A stretch of 42,690 nt of DNA from a virus. Its lineage: Duplodnaviria > Heunggongvirae > Uroviricota > Caudoviricetes. Location: IMG/VR virus record IMGVR_UViG_2718217863_000003; one strand, 5' to 3'. Under the pieces are notes generated by a model. The model worked only from the letters and a program-made list of their open reading frames with translations, was not told the DNA's origin and did not search any database. Both the position numbers and the translations under genes were made by a program. This document shows, in pieces, positions 1,217 through 35,402 of the stretch. Position 1 is the first letter of the stretch, and every line of letters begins with the position of its first letter.

Positions 1217-4200
1217 TCACAGATAAAACACTCTCCAGGAAACCCGGGGCGGTTCAGTAAGGTTTTGCCCGTCTGTTGTTTTTTGCGCATAAAACAGATA
1301 CGCAGCAGACGTTCCAACCTCAAAAACGTTTTGTCGAGTACTGGAACCCCACACCCTGATACTAACTGGTAGTTCTGAATTACCTGAATTAAGTAAAGCA
1401 AAACGATTGCCAGTCCCTGTTTGTTTTCTAATTACTAAATCGGCAGTTGAGTTAACCTCATCTTTGTTGATGGTTAGCGCCTGCGCTGTAGCACCGTTAA
1501 CAGTGCCACTTAGTAGTTGAACCGCTCCATCATCGCCATTTAACAGCACTTGAGCGCTGCTTCTGTGGTTTTTCAGGAACAACATTTTGCCTGTGCTTTC
1601 TGATGTGCCTACCGACCACGCCGAATTGGTTCCAGTGCTATCAACACCGCGCACAGCACAATTCATACTACTGTAATCTGACGTACTCCCCAGCACATCA
1701 ACACGCCCGCCGCCTAATTTTGATGGAGTCGTCGAGGTTAACGACCTGACGGTTACATCCTGATTCCATCCTGAAACAACTACCTGACTCCACTCCGTCC
1801 AGTTTCCATTGACAACAAAGCGAACGTATATGCGTTTTGTGTCGCTGCCAATCAGCGTTTGCATGATCGCATAATCTGAACCCGTAGTTTTACGAGTAGA
1901 TTCTACACGTAGCAAAAAGTTACCGCTTACGCCGTCAGGCTTATTGGTAATATATGCACCACCTGCAACAGTTTTGCATTGATAGTATTTAACAGATCCA
2001 GCCACTGTATTAGCAATGATCAAGTCGTTTAAATCAATAGTCTTGTTGTCAATGGTTTCCGGCTCGATAGATCCCGCCATACCTGCGTTAAATGTGGCAA
2101 AGTCAGAAAAGGTTGTTTTACCGCCTACCGTCACCCCGCTATCGAGTTTTGCTTGTGTGATTACTTTGCTGTTTTTTGTGTGGTCAGAATAACTACCAAA
2201 ATACAAATCACCGTCACCAGCTATACCCAGGTATTTTTGATCAACATCATCAACCTTAAACCCAATGGACAAGTTTTTAATTGTGTTGTTGCTCGTTAAA
2301 ACCAAAGGCGTATGCTGAGATCCTTTGATGCTTACCGTAGTGTTATCGGAACTGGTGCTTGTGTTTGCAAATTCTGCGGTGGCTGCGCTGATTTTGTAAG
2401 TTATTTTTAGATTGCGGGCCTCAACCCTCCCGTCGTGGCGAACAATAAAATCACCACTTGATTCACCTTTTGTGTTTTTCGCCCTGATGTGGATTTCGCC
2501 AAGTGATTCGTTGTTTTCAGGCGACCAAACAACGCCGCGCTCGCTTCCGTCGTTGTTCATGAACCACAGATGAGCGGTTCCTTTTGCTGATTTTAGCCTG
2601 ATAGATGGCGTTTCTTTCAATATATCAAGATCACCAGACATAACATCGCCGGATTTTTTCACCTGCGCATCGTTAGTTACGTTGCCAAGTCCAACATCCG
2701 ATTTCGACGGCTTGTTTGCCGAGCCGTATAGCTCATTGATGCTAAAAGTCCCGTTGTTAAGCCGGGCATCGTTGCCGGCATAGATCTTAATCTTCGCGGT
2801 TGAGTAGTCGATATTGATCGCTGACCACGTATCGCCGCACCGCGAGAATATACCAGAACCGTGGCTATAAATGGTCGCCGTGCTTCCGGTCGGCTTATCA
2901 CCGCGCCAGAAATGACCACCTTTGTCACGCAGAGCTTTTAAGATCTCTACATCGCTCATCTTGCCGTTTGTTGATATCCCGCTACCGCCAAGACCGAAAG
3001 CGCCTGTAAGCATAGCATTAGAAAGACCCAAATCTGCTTTAGTCGGCTTGTTTAACTGGTCGTAAATCCTTACAACGGGGCTTTCAACATATCCAGAAGG
3101 CGCGGCGGTTTGCTTAACAAATCCGTCTGGAATGTATAATTCCGGGCGTGCCGTCTGCGCCAGCACCGCAACCTTTGCGCCGTTGATAAATGCGCGCTGG
3201 AAGGCCCAAACCTCAATAAAGCCGTCACCTTTAACCAGGCCGTAACGCATCTGGTTGTTATCGGTCAGCCCGGTTGACCCTAAGCGGCGTATACTCAGAT
3301 GACGAGAAACATTATCCGCACTAAGCAAAGAAGGCAGACCGCGCGCCGAGATCTCGATAAAGTCAATGTTTCCGTAAGGGGAGCCGTAGTTACCGGCATT
3401 AGTAACCATTAGCGTTACATGGCAATTGCCGCTTCCGGGATCGGAAAGTTTCGCGATCTTTATGTAAAAAGACTCATTACCAGTAACAACGGGCCAATCG
3501 TATTGCGTCATCGGGCTGACGAGTCCCCCGACCTTGTCGAGATATTCTTTCGCCTTGTTCTCTGACGCTTTAGCGTTGGTTTCGCTGACCTTTGCTGCTG
3601 CCTCACTATTTTTCGCGTTGGTTTCTGATTTTTTGGCTGCTGTCGCGGAGTTTGCCGATGCAGTTTGTGAGTCTGCTGCCGCCTGTGCGCTGTTATCCGC
3701 ATTCGTCTCAGACGTTTTTGCGGCCTTCGCGGAATTTCCTGCTGCCGTTGCCGAGGAAGCTGCACTGCCGGCGCTCGAGGCAGCGCTCGTTTCTGATGAT
3801 TTTGCCGCCACTTTTGAAGCCGACGCATCCCGGGCTGAGGTGGCAGCTTCTGACGCTTTCGTGGTCGCGGTGGATGCAGATGTGGCCGCAGATTTTTGTG
3901 ATGCTGCGGCATTCATTTCCGACGTTTTCGCTGCACCGGCACTGGTGGCTGCCGCGCTTTTTGAAGACTCTGCGGCGGCAGCACTTTTTGATGCTTCAGT
4001 GGCCTTTGTTGATGCCGTTCCTGCGCTGGAAGACGCTGACTGAGCCGACGACGCGGCCTGTCCGGCTGACGTGCTGGCTGCACGTGCTGAGCCTGCAGCA
4101 TCAGTCGCACGGGTTGCCGCCTCACGGGCTGATGTGCTGGCATCGCTGGCTGACTTCTTCGCGGCTGCCGTGTTCTGTGCCACCGCGGACGCGTTACGCG

Positions 4201-4540
4201 CCACCTCTTCCACCATCAGTTCAAAACGGCGCAGTGCCTCAGGACGGGCATCATCCTCCGTCATGGCACCGAGAAAATCATTCAGCGTACCGGGTCGGGA
4301 ATCTTCATACACGGTGATGGTCCCGGCATGTGACGGCGGGAATCCTTCCACCAACAGAATAACGCTGTACTGACCGTACTCAACGTCCATGCTGTAACGC
4401 CCGGCTTCATCCGGATTTTCTGAGGCCAGCGTGTTCACCACCACCGTGGTACTGTTACGTTTTGCTTTCAGCTGGATTGTGCAGTTCTGTACCGGTTTTC
4501 CTGTGCCGTCTTTCAGTACACCTGAAATCTTTACTGCCAT
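1217..4540 (-). CDS. stf: side tail fiber protein (lambda Stf-like), 3' end interrupted by the IS; last ~13 codons and stop are IS-derived
   Basis: N-terminus MAVKISGVLKDGTGKPVQNCTIQLKA... (start at third codon of track ORF); long Ala/Ser/Thr-rich repeat region; ORF runs into IS right end. Confidence 0.8.
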   Translation of the reverse strand: MAVKISGVLKDGTGKPVQNCTIQLKAKRNSTTVVVNTLASENPDEAGRYSMDVEYGQYSVILLVEGFPPSHAGTITVYEDSRPGTLNDFLGAMTEDDARPEALRRFELMVEEVARNASAVAQNTAAAKKSASDASTSAREAATRATDAAGSARAASTSAGQAASSAQSASSSAGTASTKATEASKSAAAAESSKSAAATSAGAAKTSEMNAAASQKSAATSASTATTKASEAATSARDASASKVAAKSSETSAASSAGSAASSATAAGNSAKAAKTSETNADNSAQAAADSQTASANSATAAKKSETNAKNSEAAAKVSETNAKASENKAKEYLDKVGGLVSPMTQYDWPVVTGNESFYIKIAKLSDPGSGNCHVTLMVTNAGNYGSPYGNIDFIEISARGLPSLLSADNVSRHLSIRRLGSTGLTDNNQMRYGLVKGDGFIEVWAFQRAFINGAKVAVLAQTARPELYIPDGFVKQTAAPSGYVESPVVRIYDQLNKPTKADLGLSNAMLTGAFGLGGSGISTNGKMSDVEILKALRDKGGHFWRGDKPTGSTATIYSHGSGIFSRCGDTWSAINIDYSTAKIKIYAGNDARLNNGTFSINELYGSANKPSKSDVGLGNVTNDAQVKKSGDVMSGDLDILKETPSIRLKSAKGTAHLWFMNNDGSERGVVWSPENNESLGEIHIRAKNTKGESSGDFIVRHDGRVEARNLKITYKISAATAEFANTSTSSDNTTVSIKGSQHTPLVLTSNNTIKNLSIGFKVDDVDQKYLGIAGDGDLYFGSYSDHTKNSKVITQAKLDSGVTVGGKTTFSDFATFNAGMAGSIEPETIDNKTIDLNDLIIANTVAGSVKYYQCKTVAGGAYITNKPDGVSGNFLLRVESTRKTTGSDYAIMQTLIGSDTKRIYVRFVVNGNWTEWSQVVVSGWNQDVTVRSLTSTTPSKLGGGRVDVLGSTSDYSSMNCAVRGVDSTGTNSAWSVGTSESTGKMLFLKNHRSSAQVLLNGDDGAVQLLSGTVNGATAQALTINKDEVNSTADLVIRKQTGTGNRFALLNSGNSELPVSIRVWGSSTRQNVFEVGTSAAYLFYAQKTTDGQNLTEPPRVSWRVFYL

Positions 4541-4551
4541 ATTCACCCCAC

Positions 4552-4578
4552 AAAAAAGCCCGCCTGAACCGGCGGGCT
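4552..4578 (-). terminator. intrinsic terminator downstream of lom
   Basis: minus-strand hairpin AGCCCGCC-GGTTCA-GGCGGGCT followed by TTTTTTG. Confidence 0.7.
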
Positions 4579-4604
4579 GTCATAACACTGTGTTACCTGG
4601 CTAA

Positions 4605-5204
4605 TCAGAATTTATAACCGACACCCACGATGAAACCGTCAGTGCGCCAGTCGCCACTGCCGGAACCTTCATAAGCGACATCAACGGCCACGGATTCGGT
4701 CGGGTTAAACTGCACGCCAGCCCCCCACGCCAGAGACGTGTTGCTGTGGCGACCGTCATCACTTCCGGTCAGCACGTCGTGCGTTTTCCCCTTGTTGTCA
4801 GTTACGCGGAGATAATCCCCGGAGAAAGTCGACACACGGCTGTAAGCCATACCCGCCATCGCATACGCGCTGAACCATTCATTCACGCGCACAGACGGCC
4901 CCGCCATCACGCTGAACCAGCGGTTACGCACGGAATCTTCATGCCAGCGGGTATCGCTGTAATGCGTTTTTTGCTCATCTTTGGCATTGGCATAACTGAA
5001 TGACGTCACCAGCCCCAGCGTGTCCGTAAATTCATAACGGTATTTCACGTTAATCCCGTTCAGATTATCGCTGCCGGGGACGTTCGTACGGGCATGAAGA
5101 TACCCTGCGCTCAGTGTGGACTGGTGTTCAGACGCCCATGCAGGCGTACCTGATACGGCCAGACAGATGGCTGCGGACAAAATAGCTGCATAAACTTTAC
5201 GCAT
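4605..5204 (-). CDS. lom: Lom/Ail-family outer membrane beta-barrel protein
   Basis: 199 aa, signal peptide, C-terminal ...GVGYKF; position between J and stf as in lambda. Confidence 0.9.
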   Translation of the reverse strand: MRKVYAAILSAAICLAVSGTPAWASEHQSTLSAGYLHARTNVPGSDNLNGINVKYRYEFTDTLGLVTSFSYANAKDEQKTHYSDTRWHEDSVRNRWFSVMAGPSVRVNEWFSAYAMAGMAYSRVSTFSGDYLRVTDNKGKTHDVLTGSDDGRHSNTSLAWGAGVQFNPTESVAVDVAYEGSGSGDWRTDGFIVGVGYKF

Positions 5205-11190: not shown

Positions 11191-14100
11191 CCCTGCTGTC
11201 GATCAGATCCACCAGTCCCCTGGCTGAGCGCGCATCTATCTCGCCATTGCTCCCTTGATTCTGAATGCTGATGTGATACACGGGAGAATAAACAAATCCA
11301 CCGCCACCATTCACATCTCCAATGGCCCTGACCCCAAGAGAGCCGTCCGCTGCCCGTGTCAGTGGCATGATTGCTTCAGGCCCGGCCTCGCCCATCAACC
11401 CGGCCCCCTTCGCAAAAGCAAAATACGTCGGTGTATCCACAATAGTGTTACTGTAAGCACTCAGATTTGCCGATGTGTAAACACCACCTTTTGCGTTTGC
11501 CACTGCCCCCGAAATCCATCCGCCGACCGTACCAAGCCACCCTCCGGCACCGGAGAGTGATTTCAGTCCGTTAACAATGGCTGCATTCATCAGAATTTTT
11601 GAAACTTCCCGGAGAACTGAACTCCCCCAGTTCCTCCAGTCCACAACATTTCCGGCCAGTGCATCGGAAATATTTGATACCAGCCCGTCCATAGTGGAAA
11701 CGACAGCATCTGCCGCCTGCGAAGCATAATCGGTGGCACTGTCTGCCCAGTTGGTCAGCCCCTCCTGGAGTCCTGCATTCCAGTTATTACGTAAAGCATC
11801 GGCCTTTGCATAATAATCCTGCTGATCGCTGAGACGCTCTTCCAGATATTTTTTATTCAGTTCTTTCTCCTGTTTCCACAGGGCTTCTTCAATTTCTCCG
11901 GCCTGATACTGTCTCAGCAGCTCGTTATTTTTCTGCTCAAACTCATGCCGGATACTCCACATTTCCTGGAGTCGTTCACGCATCCGTGAGCCTTCACCAT
12001 ATCCCAGTAACTGCGCGTCGTTAGACGCCCGGGTACTGGCATTACTGTCCGCCAGGCTGCTTTCATACGCAGCAAGCTGCTCACGAATCTTTTTCTGGTC
12101 GATGAGTGCTGCATTCTGCAAAAGCGTTTTTTTCTGCGCTTCTGACAGGGTTGATAATTCGCCCTGACTGACCTGATATTTCATCTTAGCCAGTTCAGTA
12201 TTCTGCCCTGCCAGTGCTATCTGTTCTTTTTGCTGTTTAATCAGCCGTTTATAAATATCTTCTGTTTTTTCCGCTTCGGTCTTTTTATGCGCTTTGGGTT
12301 TATTTGCCTGGTTATTTCGCCAGGCATCCAGTGAGTTATTGATATAATTCTGTCTGGCTGTCTGATACGCCTCTCCCACAAAGCCAAGATCATCCGCAGC
12401 ATAGCCCAGTCGAGCACGCTCACGCGCTTCCCCCTTAAGGCGGGACAGAGCCAGTTCGCGCTTGCTGTTATTCAGTGCGGTCTGCTGTTTATCATCCAGG
12501 GTTGCCTGTGGTAGCCGTAACGGTACATTCACCAACCCCTGTCGCTGCTGAAGTAATTCATTACCAAGCCCAAGAAGGCGATTAAACTCGGTATGCTGCC
12601 CATTCATGATCAACAGGGACTGATACGCTTTGTTTTGTTCCGCCGCCTGTTGACGGATCAACGCAACCCGCCGCTCCTCCAGCCCGGCAAGCACATCCTG
12701 AATGGATTGCGCTTTGCCCTGCATTTGTGTGAGACGGGACTGTTCAACTGCCAGTTGATTTGTTGCTTCTGCAAGCCCTTCTGTGACTGTTTTTACCGAC
12801 GTCATGTGGTTAATCATAAAACCGTTATCGGTTGTCCAGCCCGGGTTTGCCAGCACATACTGATAGCCAGCAATTTTTTCCTGTAAGGATTTAATCTTAC
12901 TTTTCTGCTCGTCAATTAACCTGTTTTGCTCATCAAGTGCCTGCCGCGTCTTTTCCTCATTATCTGACGCTTCAGGAAGCGACATTGCCGACGTTTTCTG
13001 GCGAATTTCGTCGATTGTTGCGGCATACTGGCGTGCAGATTCTCTGGCCTGCTCCTGATTCTGATACATCGTGTACCAGGCCGTCGCCCCCAGCATGACG
13101 AGTCCCGGCACACCACCAACCAGCCCCAGCGCACCACTTAACAGACGACTCCCCACTGACGTGACAGTATTCAGCGTTGTCTGCGCCGCTGTTCTGGCCG
13201 CAATATTACGGGTAAGTGACGCCTGAGCAGCTGTCAGCTTCGCTTCTGCTGCGGCCTGCCTTTCGGTACCGCGAGCAGCAACAACCGCCTGTTGCGCACG
13301 ATAAACCGCCGCACGCGCTCTGGCGGTTGCTATCTGTGTCCCCCGAAGTTGCGCTTCAGCAAGAGCCACTTCGTTTCTGGCTGCAGTAATTAATCCGGCA
13401 GTTGCAGATCCAGCAGACGACGCCATATTGCCAAAATATCGGGCTACCCCGACGGCAACCAGTGCGCCAGCTGCAGCAGCCACGGTATCAATATTGTCTG
13501 CAACACCATTCAGCACACCGGAGAGTGTCTTTGTCACTCCGCTTGCCTCGTTCGCACCACCAACCCAGGCCATAAAGGCGTTTTCAACTTTGGTTGCAGA
13601 GGATGAAACAGTATCAGGCATTGCTGCATATTCATCACGCAACGCCCCAAGCTGACTAATCAGTGCAGGAACAACCTTATCGGCGGTCAGTTTTCCGTTA
13701 TCCGCCATGGCCTTCAGATCCTTACGGGCAACCCCCATTCCCGCAGCCAGCGCACGAATAACACGATCGCCGTTCTCATTCACCGAGTTAAACTCTTCAC
13801 CGCGCAGCACTCCCTGCGCCAGTGCCTGACTGAACTGCATGATCACCGAACTGGCTTCTGCTGTACTGGCACCGGATAATTTCAGGCCCGTGGAGATCGC
13901 CTCGGTGACTTTCAGTACCTCCTCAGAACTGTAACCATACTCCCGCATGGAAGCTGCAGAACGGGCAAAAAGGCTGGCGTTATCAGAAAACGCCGTCCCC
14001 GTTCTCTGGCTGATCGCCATTAATTCACGCTGTGATGCCTGAAAATCATCACTGGACTGTGAGGCCTGCTTCAGACGGGCATTTACTGAATTCCACTCAT

Positions 14101-31925: not shown

Positions 31926-32081
31926 TTACTCCTCAGGTTCGTAAGCTGTGAAGACAGCGACCTCCGTCTGGCCGGTTCGGATTCGTACCTCGCAGAGGTC
32001 TTTCCTCGTTACCAGTGCCGTCACAATGACGGTTAAACAGATGACGATCAGGGCGATTAACATCGCCTTTTGCTGCTTCAT
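31926..32081 (-). CDS. hok: Hok/Gef-family type I toxin (HokD/RelF-like)
   Basis: MKQQKAMLIALIVICLTVIVTALVTRKDLCEVRIRTGQTEVAVFTAYEPEE; AAGGAG RBS. Confidence 0.9.
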   Translation of the reverse strand: MKQQKAMLIALIVICLTVIVTALVTRKDLCEVRIRTGQTEVAVFTAYEPEE

Positions 32082-32340
32082 AGCCTGCTTCTCCTTGCCT
32101 TTCGGCACGTAAGAGGCTAACCTAGATTTGCCGTTCATAGATTGAGCCTCAGATTAATGTTAAGCGTCTTGCAGGACGCGTAATGTTAACTGGGGCTTTT
32201 CTCTATCTGCCTTTTGGTGTTCATGCCTGAGACAGATAGCCTCAAGCACCCGCAGTCATTCTACTTAACTAAGATTTCCCCGCAAACCGTTTTTGTCCGG
32301 CACAGTAAATATCCAACTAAACCAATGGCGTTCGCTGTAT

Positions 32341-32520: not shown

Positions 32521-32749
32521 TATTCCTCCTACAATCAATGTGCAATTACATTTAAACACACCTCAATTTGGCCGAACATATAAATATCTAAACCAGAAAA
32601 AATCACTTACATAGCGTTACAAACTCTTTAGTCTAAATATTCATCGTAAAACATTCCCCATACTTATCAGCCCGTTCTGCGCCAGGTAGCTCATTGCCTT
32701 ATCTGGGAATCTGTAATCAGGTTTCCGGATGCTGGTGGATTTTCGCGTT

Positions 32750-33007
32750 TTAGTTGTTCATAAAAGTGCACAGCTTTAACCAGTTCTTCTGATGTAACCG
32801 GGACTGGCGGGGCAGTGAATAAGGCCTGAATTTCATAGTTCGGCCTGTCGTTACAATCCTCTTTTTTCGGTACATATTTCCAGTCACCAGACCACTACTT
32901 CTCCTGAAAGTCCGTAACGCCTTTTTTTTCACGTAGCGATATCGCCATGCCACTGTTTTTGCTTGCCCCGCCGTTTCATGCCCTTCCTGATAATTAACCT
33001 CGCTCAT
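32750..33007 (-). CDS. hypothetical basic protein (85 aa)
   Basis: ATGA start/stop overlap with upstream gene; internal A8-9 homopolymer. Confidence 0.4.
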   Translation of the reverse strand: MSEVNYQEGHETAGQAKTVAWRYRYVKKKALRTFRRSSGLVTGNMYRKKRIVTTGRTMKFRPYSLPRQSRLHQKNWLKLCTFMNN

Positions 33008-33180
33008 TCATCGCCCCACTCATCACAATATGCTTCGACCGGAGTTTTTCCTGCTTCATAATCATCACGCCATGCTTCAGCATCAGCAGCACTGCCACCA
33101 CGTAACTCTGCATAGTCCATTAACAGTTCATGCCATTCTTCAAAACTGACGTTGTATTTAGTTGAACCAAAATCAGCCAT
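33004..33180 (-). CDS. hypothetical small acidic protein (58 aa)
   Basis: translated by hand: MADFGSTKYNVSFEEWHELLMDYAELRGGSAADAEAWRDDYEAGKTPVEAYCDEWGDE; below track cutoff. Confidence 0.5.
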   Translation of the reverse strand: MADFGSTKYNVSFEEWHELLMDYAELRGGSAADAEAWRDDYEAGKTPVEAYCDEWGDE

Positions 33181-33355
33181 TTTGTTCTTCCTCTTCGTCT
33201 TTTATTTCGTGATATGAGTAATTGCAGTAGTTAAAGAAAATATCTTTTGCTTCGTCATGTATTTCATCAGGCGTCGCATCATCATCCACTTCGAATTCAT
33301 CCTCGAAATCTCCACCGGCTATTCCCGTTTCAATAATTATTTTAAACTTTCGCAT
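33173..33355 (-). CDS. hypothetical small acidic protein (60 aa)
   Basis: MRKFKIIIETGIAGGDFEDEFEVDDDATPDEIHDEAKDIFFNYCNYSYHEIKDEEEEQNG; AT-rich. Confidence 0.5.
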   Translation of the reverse strand: MRKFKIIIETGIAGGDFEDEFEVDDDATPDEIHDEAKDIFFNYCNYSYHEIKDEEEEQNG

Positions 33356-33448
33356 TTAACTACCGCCCTTTCGGGCGGCCTCCTGATGTTCTGAGGGTGC
33401 AGAAATCCCTCCGGTTAAGGATTAAATTTTTAACAGAGCTAAATTTAA

Positions 33449-33805
33449 TTATTCAGTTCTGGATTTTGTCGCCCTGCGTATCCGCGCTTTCGCGTTACGC
33501 TCAATCTGAATTAGCTTTTCTATATTTTTTCGCCTTTCCCGCTCCTCCTGACGCAAGAGCCTTACATCATCTGCCAGTCTGGTTTCTCTTTTCGCCACAG
33601 AGAGCATCCAGTCAAATGGCTCCACAACTGCACCGCAGATTTTACAGCGGACCTGACGCTCTTTTTCGTCAACCCGGACAGAGGCGTGATGACAATATGG
33701 TCTTTCCGATGGCTCATAAAGAAAATTAACCTGATTACGAGGGTCATCCTCTTTTACCGGAAATAAAACGATATTGCTTAACTCATCCTCTGGTTTTATT
33801 TCCAT
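33449..33805 (-). CDS. hypothetical Cys/His-containing protein (118 aa)
   Basis: internal ATG with AAGGAGAGGAG RBS; ...CHHASVRVDEKERQVRCKICGAVVEPFDW... Confidence 0.5.
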   Translation of the reverse strand: MEIKPEDELSNIVLFPVKEDDPRNQVNFLYEPSERPYCHHASVRVDEKERQVRCKICGAVVEPFDWMLSVAKRETRLADDVRLLRQEERERRKNIEKLIQIERNAKARIRRATKSRTE

Positions 33806-33862
33806 GCTCCTCTCCTTTGATGCGAATGCCAGCGGTAATTGAAGCCTGATAGCTAATTTCAC

Positions 33863-34285
33863 TCACAGTACCGCCTCCTGAAAATTACCCTGATAGAAAG
33901 CCAGTACACGCTGCATAGCTTCACTCTTCCGGCACTCGCGACAGATTATGTTTAGGCGACTGTCGTAGCGACGTATTTCTCCGTCAGGTAACGACCAGAT
34001 AAGGTCCGGATCAACCACAACCGGTTTCTTCAGCTTTGCCCTCGATAATTTTTTGCGGGCATTTTGCCAGTCTTTACGAGCCTGTTCAGACGGGAATAAC
34101 CCGTAGCCAGAATTGTATACATCGCCACTGGCAACCAGCTCTCTGGCCAGAACGCTCATCAGATATCTTGTTGCCCCAGTTTTAGCTTCCAGTTGTCGTA
34201 ACGTCTCGCGCCCACTCTGGCGTACGAGTTCAAGAACCTGTCCTTTAATTTTTTCCCGCTCTTCTTGTGTAAAAACTTTTGCCAC
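33863..34285 (-). CDS. hypothetical protein (140 aa) downstream of replication gene
   Basis: ORF only; synteny. Confidence 0.45.
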   Translation of the reverse strand: MAKVFTQEEREKIKGQVLELVRQSGRETLRQLEAKTGATRYLMSVLARELVASGDVYNSGYGLFPSEQARKDWQNARKKLSRAKLKKPVVVDPDLIWSLPDGEIRRYDSRLNIICRECRKSEAMQRVLAFYQGNFQEAVL

Positions 34286-34325: not shown

Positions 34326-35402
34326 TTACCCCCTGAAGCCCGGCGGAATTTCGTTATCCGGTTCAGAAATATGATTCACACAACGCTGGTTGTTCGTGCC
34401 GCTTACCGGGAGCAGCCAGGGGTTTTCAAAATTCCGGTCCGGTCCAAAAAACGTCGTCGCTCGCTGAACAAATTCCGTTCCCGTTTTCCCGGTAGCCGCA
34501 AGGTATCTTGCGTAACGCCTCACGCCATCCAGCATGGCCTCTGGTGGCACCCCCTCGCGTAATCTGGCTTTCCAGGCACTGAAAGCGGATTTCTTCGGGT
34601 TTGCCCCGGCACGCAACGGGTATTCCCGCCAGACCTGTTCGAACACATCAGGATAATCCACTCGTCCCACAGGCTGCCCGGTGTTTTCCGGGACTACCCG
34701 ATCGGCTTCCCGCTGAATGGCGGAATCGGCTTCAGGCTGCTGAAGTTGGTGTGATTGCTCCTGCCTTGCGGTCATCACCTGCTGCACAGCGCCCGAATCG
34801 GCTTTCAGCGCATACGCTGAATCGGCTTCCGGTGTCGTGCCTGCGGGCTGGCCAGGAGTGACGGTCTGAACATCCCCTGCCTGGTTCGTGGCGTTTTTTA
34901 CGCCATGGACCATAGTGTTTTGATCTTCTTGATCTGTATCTTTATCTGTATCTTTATCTGTCGTGACTCGTCGTGACATGTGCGTGACATTTCGTGACTC
35001 GCCGTGACAATCGCCATTTTGTTCCCGCTTTCTTTCCCTCTCTCGCTGCGCCCTCTTGCGCTCTGCCGGAGATTTTGCGGTTTGCGAAATATTGCCGTTG
35101 TCCTCTTTCAGCACCTGGCGTTTTTCCCATCCAGTGATTAAATCACCATCAAGTACCCGCCCCTGCATCGTCTGCAAAATTGAATCAATTACCTCTTCTG
35201 TCACGTCGAGCGCACTTGCCAAATCTTCTGTCGTGACATCAATGTGACCTCGCGTGACATTTCGTGACGCGCTCACCAGGAGGTGGATATACACTGCCAT
35301 CACTGTTGCAATTGGCTGCCCTGACACCCTGGCAATTGTTCGCCACTTAGGGTCATTTGGCATGTCATGCCATAATCTGAGCCAGGCGTTAGCCATACTC
35401 AC
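34326..35402 (-). CDS. replication initiator (lambda O-like / Rac YdaU-like) with internal origin iterons
   Basis: 358 aa; position after cro/ydaT; two iteron clusters within the gene; low-complexity linker DKDTDKDTD. Confidence 0.6.
   Translation of the reverse strand: MSMANAWLRLWHDMPNDPKWRTIARVSGQPIATVMAVYIHLLVSASRNVTRGHIDVTTEDLASALDVTEEVIDSILQTMQGRVLDGDLITGWEKRQVLKEDNGNISQTAKSPAERKRAQRERERKREQNGDCHGESRNVTHMSRRVTTDKDTDKDTDQEDQNTMVHGVKNATNQAGDVQTVTPGQPAGTTPEADSAYALKADSGAVQQVMTARQEQSHQLQQPEADSAIQREADRVVPENTGQPVGRVDYPDVFEQVWREYPLRAGANPKKSAFSAWKARLREGVPPEAMLDGVRRYARYLAATGKTGTEFVQRATTFFGPDRNFENPWLLPVSGTNNQRCVNHISEPDNEIPPGFRG
34921..35010. repeat. origin-like iteron cluster 1 (CGTGAC repeats plus 12-bp ATCTGTATCTTT tandem repeats)
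   Basis: GTCGTGACTCGTCGTGACATGTGCGTGACATTTCGTGACTCGCCGTGACA. Confidence 0.6.
35196..35275. repeat. origin-like iteron cluster 2
   Basis: GTCACGTCGAG...GTCGTGACATCAATGTGACCTCGCGTGACATTTCGTGACGCG; shares exact 17-mer GCGTGACATTTCGTGAC with cluster 1. Confidence 0.6.

Follow-up and report, generated by a model that had tools for sequence, protein, structure and literature searches.

We have identified, in a prophage of Escherichia coli, a mobile cassette of two phage accessory ('moron-like') early genes that carries its own leader, a Shine-Dalgarno (SD) sequence followed by a hairpin. The prophage is represented by IMG/VR virus record IMGVR_UViG_2718217863_000003, a stretch of 42,690 nucleotides (nt) that we refer to, at its full length, as the window and that constitutes a complete Qin/Rac-like lambdoid prophage. 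The two genes of the cassette encode strongly acidic proteins of 60 and 58 amino acids (aa), whose acidity is conserved in two separate protein families. Both families are already annotated, though uncharacterised, and neither gene is new to the databases. Our tentative best guess, on circumstantial grounds, is that the proteins serve in anti-defence or in the inhibition of host proteins.

Two overlapping genes encode the most acidic small proteins of the prophage

The two genes are as follows.

33173-33355, minus strand: gene for the 60-aa protein, an open reading frame (ORF) running from ATG to TGA (RefSeq WP_001224662.1, 'DUF7167 family protein')
33004-33180, minus strand: gene for the 58-aa protein, an ORF running from ATG to TGA (RefSeq WP_000753060.1, 'hypothetical protein')

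An initial annotation, made from the sequence, had drawn attention to overlapping genes for proteins of 58 and 60 aa at 33004-33355, and both ORFs are indeed found there on the minus strand. They overlap by 8 nt (ATGGCTGA, 33173-33180), with the ATG of the 58-aa gene lying across the stop codon of the 60-aa gene. The same annotation described the products as strongly acidic with interspersed aromatic residues, which their composition bears out. The 58-aa protein contains 16 aspartate and glutamate residues (D+E) against 4 lysine and arginine residues (K+R), giving a net charge of -12, and has nine aromatic residues; the 60-aa protein contains 20 against 5 (net charge -15) and has eight. Each has an isoelectric point (pI) of 4.05, and D and E make up 28-33% of the two proteins. 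Among the 144 ORFs of at least 50 aa in the window the 60-aa protein ranks first and the 58-aa protein second in acidity, with charges per residue of -0.25 and -0.21, respectively, as against -0.11 for the ORF ranked third, a gap of about two-fold. The 60-aa gene is also AT-rich, as had been noted, with a GC content of 36.6% (44.1% for the 58-aa gene and 50.4% for the window).

Patterns of substitution confirm that both genes are real and under purifying selection, which supports their coding status. When the 58-aa gene is compared with an 88%-identical copy on an IncI2 plasmid, the proportion of synonymous differences (pS) is 0.45 and that of nonsynonymous differences (pN) is 0.06, for a dN/dS of about 0.09; comparison with a copy from Enterobacter gives a pS of 0.83 and a pN of 0.11. 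For the 60-aa gene, comparison with a homologue from Klebsiella gives a pS of 0.86 and a pN of 0.19.

The genes form a mobile cassette with its own leader

Immediately upstream of the 60-aa gene lies a leader with the following parts.

33356-33386, minus strand: translation leader, consisting of the SD AGGAGG, a stem and 6 nt to the AUG
33379-33384, minus strand: SD AGGAGG, identified in the sequence
33362-33379, minus strand: 7-bp stem with a GAAA loop, predicted by RNA folding and followed by 6 nt and the AUG of the 60-aa gene

With the leader unfolded, 23 nt separate the SD from the AUG of the 60-aa gene, whereas with the stem folded the two come to lie at a normal distance, within 6 nt. 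From this anatomy alone we infer a hairpin-bridged ribosome-binding site. The stem is not an intrinsic terminator, because no T-run follows it, and a terminator scan gave no match there. In many E. coli copies the TAA just 5' of the 60-aa ATG is replaced by GAA (window 33356-33440, minus strand), and such copies are called as 84-93-aa forms that read through the hairpin (…QEAARKGGSEMRKFK…; proteins P0072-P0076 and P0079). In one of these, P0073 (139 member sequences), the internal Met is itself replaced (…SERRKFK…), and this lineage may truly make a longer protein.

Homology between the window and the Shiga toxin (Stx) phage ArgO145 begins exactly at TCAGGAGG, the SD, while genes farther upstream differ, and the cassette thus carries its own leader. 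In ArgO145 and four Stx2a phages both genes are present at 98.9% identity in the other early operon, within the exo-xis region, and in ArgO145 the cassette is placed between two ead/Ea22-like genes. The cassette is about 0.4 kb in size and is flanked by mosaic joints, which we mapped in 80 IMG/VR loci that contain an identical or 98%-identical 58-aa gene. Joints recur upstream at about 33380-33470 and at 33830 and beyond, and downstream at about 32730 or 32990; the 60-aa gene is also present at 79 of the 80 loci. The pair occurs in 1750 of 5426 complete E. coli genomes (about 32%), at up to four places per genome, and at least 80% of both genes is covered in 1753 of the 1912 matching E. coli records. 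A related-locus search with a narrower alignment returned near-identical E. coli copies alone.

Acidity is a conserved property of two unrelated families

The 60-aa protein is a full-length member of the Pfam family DUF7167 (PHROG 1997), a family without a characterised member. It scores 55.1 bits against DUF7167 (PF23768; cut-off 24.4), with residues 2-53 aligned to profile positions 1-60 of 60, and matches PHROG 1997 with an E-value (E) of 9e-31. The 58-aa protein has no Pfam family but matches PHROG 519 (E 4.5e-23), with residues 1-58 aligned to positions 76-137 of 143; the match is partial probably because some members of the PHROG are longer or fused to other domains, as with DUF1187 in P0197 and with NADAR in the protein of phage EP_H11 described below. 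A profile-profile comparison indicates that the two families are unrelated to each other.

AlphaFold2 (AF2) models built from the family alignments predict compact but different folds. The 58-aa protein is modelled as a three-helix bundle (helices 13-27, 34-42 and 47-55) with a predicted local distance difference test score (pLDDT) of 87.9 and a predicted template modelling score (pTM) of 0.71, and the 60-aa protein as a beta-hairpin (2-8/17-23) followed by a helix (29-43) and an unstructured tail that is aromatic and acidic (pLDDT 86.2). W16, L20, W37, Y41, G44 and P47 are near-invariant in the 58-aa family, the overall pattern of which is F-E-E-W...L...A...G-G-S-x-A-D-x-x-A-W-R-x-D-Y-x-A-G-K-T-P-x-E-A...D-E-W-G. 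In DUF7167 the motif E-V-[DE]-D-D-A-T lies at the strand-helix junction, and each of its positions is at least 93% conserved.

The charge of the proteins is conserved along with their sequence. Thirteen positions of the 58-aa family and 22 of DUF7167 are D or E in at least 60% of members. Among relatives that are 30-60% identical the median net charge is -10 for the 58-aa family (n=47) and -13 for DUF7167 (n=42), and the net charge is negative in 46 of the 47 and in all 42, respectively. Because charge is conserved across the members of both families, acidity is a selected property rather than an accident of composition.

Outside E. coli the two families go separate ways

When 1.84 billion representatives were scanned exhaustively with HMMER, 74 matched the 58-aa family at E<=1e-3, nearly all of them stand-alone proteins of 50-65 aa, and by representative count the family is small. 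Homologues that are 79% identical occur, without DUF7167, in Enterobacter prophages, directly 3' of Ead/Ea22-like genes and either next to xis/int or in the nin region. More distant members are found in Kuttervirus (Cba120 orf183) and other Ackermannviridae, in the KP34-like phage phiKDA1, and in the phages EP_H11 and IME392, which have genomes of about 111-116 kb.

Several members of the 58-aa family have neighbours of a kind associated with counter-defence. In P2-like phages the homologue directly follows genes for a Dam methylase and GpA, and on a RecT-bearing phage contig it neighbours a protein with a Lar restriction-alleviation domain. In IME392 (2495-3154 of the stretch examined) a 57-aa homologue begins 18 nt after a gene for a NADAR protein (ADP-ribosyl-glycohydrolase), and in EP_H11 (2506-3162 of the stretch examined) NADAR and the 58-aa homologue are fused in frame into a single protein of 218 aa. 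Phage NADARs, including one from T5-like phages, are known to neutralise DarTG1 defence (PMC11257639). The phiKDA1 homologue, gp26 (51 aa; 3016-3171 of the stretch examined), is encoded between DNA polymerase and a 5'-3' exonuclease, an interval that in T7 is held by gp5.9 (3060-3218 of the stretch examined), an acidic inhibitor of RecBCD; the two proteins are unrelated, and the analogy is one of position only.

The 58-aa family is also widespread on plasmids. A tblastn search found it in 554 plasmid records, of which 516 are typed as conjugative, with 412 falling within the band of 80-90% identity. On the one IncI2 mcr-1 plasmid that we examined, pMCR-NMG21 (NZ_MK836306.1), an 88%-identical copy (11793-12177 of the stretch examined) comes after a CaiF/GrlA regulator and a DUF1187 gene, the end of which it overlaps, and heads an operon that continues into SPFH/NfeD and type IV secretion system genes; mobC and the relaxase gene are some 17 kb away, on the far side of repA. 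On large plasmids typed as IncT and IncU the homologue belongs to long runs of small hypothetical genes that all point the same way. Judged by these sequence matches, the 58-aa family spans temperate phages, virulent phages and conjugative plasmids.

DUF7167, by comparison, is present in only 15 plasmid records. Its relatives in Klebsiella, Citrobacter, Yersinia and Pantoea share the length and the E-V-[DE]-D-D-A-T motif of the 60-aa protein, and tblastn matches of 40-43% identity occur in Enterococcus phages (Herelleviridae), where the gene follows one for a DUF3850/ASCH protein. In Klebsiella Guernseyvirinae (two stretches, 3501-5025) about 10 nt are shared between the DUF7167 gene and the start of a gene for a 454-aa DUF2800/PD-(D/E)XK nuclease, which is then followed by a gene for a Gp2.5-like single-stranded-DNA-binding/annealing protein. 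We considered a nuclease as a recurrent neighbour of DUF7167 and rejected the idea, since the 'exonucleases' concerned are unrelated (one a DUF2800/PD-(D/E)XK protein, the other a DUF3850/ASCH protein). We also note that a 55-aa DUF7167 protein in ON107243 is labelled 'PD-(D/E)XK phosphodiesterase', apparently through a slip in annotation. In the contexts that we examined outside E. coli (Klebsiella, Guernseyvirinae and Enterococcus) there is no 58-aa gene beside DUF7167.

Setting of the cassette in the prophage

The genes sit in the rightward early operon, and the initial placement of them in an early region is therefore correct. The order of the operon is cro, ydaT, replication gene, DUF977 gene, Zn-ribbon gene, 60-aa gene, 58-aa gene, pseudogene, hokD, DUF968 gene, rusA and Q. 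In one genome that contains a 100%-identical copy of the 1.7-kb region the prophage adjoins potC/potD. The nearer neighbours are as follows.

34326-35402: replication gene, in the upstream part of the rightward early operon
33863-34285: DUF977 gene, in the rightward early operon
33449-33862, minus strand: gene for a Zn-ribbon protein (PHROG 1621; weak match to a TFIIB-type zinc ribbon)
32691-33007, minus strand: next gene after the cassette, in RefSeq a frameshifted pseudogene with an internal stop
32076-32251 and 31926-32138, minus strand: hokD/sok type I toxin-antitoxin locus (Rfam sok, 112 bits)

Because the stop codon of the 58-aa gene overlaps the start of the next gene (ATGA), translation looks to be coupled along this part of the operon, and the stop-start overlap within the cassette fits the same picture. 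A scan of the coding strand found no promoter-like or terminator-like site between the two genes and their neighbours, and an Rfam search gave no match within the cassette. In ArgO145 the Zn-ribbon gene (gp17) also travels with the cassette, with a 70-aa gene inserted between them. The pseudogene opens with 16 codons (MSEVNYQ...) similar to the N-terminal part of the ead/Ea22-like gene found 3' of the cassette in ArgO145, and the remainder matches an unrelated gene of mEp460-like phages. Farther along the same operon, some 0.8 kb past the cassette, comes the hokD/sok locus.

Comparison with known inhibitors and other candidate functions

Searches of Pfam, NCBIfam, PADLOC and PHROGs with the two proteins returned only DUF7167 and PHROGs of unknown function, and hence no functional assignment; PADLOC-DB, which covers defence systems rather than anti-defence proteins, gave no matches. 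Nor did these databases or the PDB chains reveal homology to a protein of known and unrelated function, such as the initial annotation had said would refute its proposal of a DNA-mimic or anti-defence role. The similarity to anti-restriction and Ocr-like proteins that it had suggested looking for is, however, absent for Ocr, ArdA, KlcA/ArdB and T7 gp5.9. The Pfam families of Ocr, ArdA and KlcA are matched by neither protein, even with the limit on E relaxed to 1. When all PDB chains were searched with the profiles to a limit of E 10, only chance-level matches came back, none of them to an antirestriction protein, a DNA mimic or a known inhibitor, and fold searches with the AF2 models found no resemblance to a known DNA-mimic structure; of the mimics, Gam was covered by the Pfam scan only, and Arn, Ugi and p56 by the PDB sequence and fold searches only, their presence in those libraries being unconfirmed. 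Comparison of the two family alignments with T7 gp5.9 by hhalign gave probabilities of 0.3% and 0.04%, indicating no homology. The proteins thus resemble Ocr, ArdA, sArdN/sArdC, gp5.9, Arn, p56 and Ugi in their small size, a pI of about 4, an early or accessory position and carriage by both phages and plasmids, but in the searches just described they showed no sequence, profile or fold similarity to any of these inhibitors. The resemblance is one of kind and not of family.

Two other candidate assignments were rejected. A ribbon-helix-helix fold for the 58-aa protein is suggested only by a 20-residue match to pRN1 ORF56 (E 0.52), whereas the model has three helices and no strand, and a net charge of -12 speaks against DNA binding; charge and all-helical model together rule the idea out. 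A HicB-like/UPF0150 N-terminal domain for DUF7167 is suggested by in-register hhalign alignments with two plasmid HicB proteins, but with E of 0.14 and 0.2, probabilities below 1% and no Pfam match.

Searches of the literature by family name (DUF7167 and DUF1187), accession, PHROG identifier and motif found nothing on either family, and neither protein turned up when the supplements of a large accessory-gene screen were searched by motif. The lambdoid exo-xis genes (orf60a, orf61, orf63, orf73, ea8.5 and ea22) offer a further comparison, being early, small and non-essential-looking and occupying the same neighbourhood as the cassette in Stx phages; they differ in that the cassette in the window occupies the other early operon, behind the replication genes. 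Term and motif searches did not find the two proteins in a modelling survey of the exo-xis region (PMC8614690). At the level of Pfam families, the lambda exo-xis proteins and the two proteins have nothing in common.

Discussion

The reading that we favour, as a best guess still short of an even chance, is anti-defence or host-protein inhibition. Each protein would most likely act alone, as a stoichiometric binder and inhibitor of a host protein, and the target would probably be a nucleic-acid-binding protein of defence or of DNA metabolism. A conserved surface of acidic and aromatic residues would fill the basic nucleic-acid-binding site of such a target, and the outcome would be counter-defence or host take-over through electrostatic mimicry and not through enzymatic activity. 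Both proteins are too small to be enzymes, because they are shorter than 61 aa and have no Pfam catalytic domain. A stoichiometric binder is the most economical reading of proteins that are small and compact, have an extreme and conserved charge, are encoded in early operons and hop among unrelated elements. The NADAR, Lar-domain and Dam-methylase neighbours of the 58-aa family point weakly to counter-defence, and the case is somewhat stronger for this family than for DUF7167. Antirestriction activity is within reach of short acidic modules, as sArdN and sArdC show (PMC12548430), which keeps the initial idea alive. Of the initial proposal, then, what stands is that these are genuine acidic accessory proteins of the early region, with conserved acidity and neighbours of a counter-defence type; what does not is similarity to known anti-restriction proteins; strict DNA mimicry is unsupported, and outside E. 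coli the two genes are not an obligate pair.

Several observations weigh against this reading. Guilt by association is weak evidence in phage accessory regions, and the NADAR link does not hold as a general rule, being confined to IME392 and EP_H11, while other T5-like NADARs have no adjacent 58-aa domain. Nor is the 58-aa gene of IncI2 plasmids clearly a 'leading-region gene', given its distance from the relaxase gene and its position beyond repA. The most invariant residues of the 58-aa family are mostly hydrophobic or aromatic and look like a structural core. Finally, other lambdoid exo-xis genes are reported to affect the lysis-lysogeny decision and not defence.

This last point leads to the most serious alternative, which we regard as possible, if on the unlikely side, namely that the proteins modulate phage development (the lysis-lysogeny decision, replication or recombination) by binding phage proteins or housekeeping host proteins, with no part in immunity; they would then act in the manner of other small genes of the lambdoid exo-xis and nin regions. 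The exo-xis cassette of ArgO145 has an ead/Ea22-like gene on either side, and in Enterobacter and Klebsiella prophages members of both families are flanked by Ea22-like genes; exo-xis genes have been reported to influence lysogenisation and induction (PMC3824215, PMC7093339). DUF7167 is encoded next to replication or recombination genes in Guernseyvirinae, and after replication genes here. On the other hand, strictly virulent phages and conjugative plasmids, which face no lysis-lysogeny decision, likewise carry the 58-aa family, and this tells against a developmental role as the general explanation; in the contexts that we examined neither family has a constant phage-encoded neighbour that might be its partner.

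It is improbable that the two are true mimics of double-stranded DNA of the Ocr/ArdA type that would block type I restriction-modification or BREX. We take the beta-hairpin and following helix of DUF7167 to recall, loosely, the N-terminal domain of ArdA. The pI of the two proteins, with their D/E share of 28-33%, is similar to the value of about 4 cited for Ocr and ArdA (bioRxiv 10.1101/2023.04.06.535777), and the short acidic modules sArdN and sArdC, derived from ArdA, are sufficient for antirestriction activity (PMC12548430). Nevertheless, there is no match to the Ocr, ArdA or KlcA families of Pfam even at E<=1 and no PDB sequence match, and a protein of 58-60 aa, reckoned as a monomer, would span far less than the DNA footprint of a type I enzyme.

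We think it very doubtful that the two proteins function only jointly, as a heterodimer, a toxin-antitoxin-like pair or an inhibitor with its cofactor. The 8-nt overlap would fit translational coupling, both genes are nearly always found together in the IMG/VR loci and in the E. coli records, and the cassette keeps both genes when it moves between its exo-xis and post-replication positions. However, 58-aa homologues of 79-88% identity occur without DUF7167 in Enterobacter prophages and on IncI2 plasmids; the families are found apart in Klebsiella prophages, Guernseyvirinae, Enterococcus phages, Kuttervirus and P2-like phages; and their numbers on plasmids are far from equal (554 records against 15). 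Both proteins are acidic, unlike a typical toxin-antitoxin pair, and we found no fusion of the two beyond frameshift artefacts. The notion that the ORFs are non-functional or mis-annotated, with an acidity that stems from local base composition, might appeal to their shortness, the AT-richness of the 60-aa gene and the absence of an assigned function, but is essentially refuted by synonymous sites near saturation with little amino-acid change, by existing family profiles (Pfam DUF7167 and PHROGs 519 and 1997), by relatives of 30-50% identity in other phage families and in Enterococcus phages, by confident AF2 models and by the conservation of the cassette-borne SD.

What has been gained is a description of two 'hypothetical protein' families by their fold, conserved charge, cassette boundaries, leader, independence of each other and host range, with a spread wider than expected that takes in IncI2 plasmids, and both families are cheap and well-defined candidates for defence screening. 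Roughly one complete E. coli genome in three has the cassette, with Stx-converting phages among its carriers, and a close copy of the 58-aa gene resides on the IncI2 type of plasmid that spreads mcr-1. Within the favoured reading of host-protein inhibition and counter-defence, a bolder and rather unlikely version would make PHROG 519 an unrecognised and very widespread inhibitor of nucleic-acid-targeting defence (restriction, DarT-type DNA ADP-ribosylation or RecBCD), common to lambdoid and P2-like prophages, to Kuttervirus and other virulent phages and to IncI2 (mcr-1) conjugative plasmids, with DUF7167 as another inhibitor, independent of the first and linked to it in E. coli. If either protein does disable a host defence, it would rank among the most prevalent counter-defence genes in Enterobacteriaceae, with a bearing on phage therapy and on the spread of plasmids.

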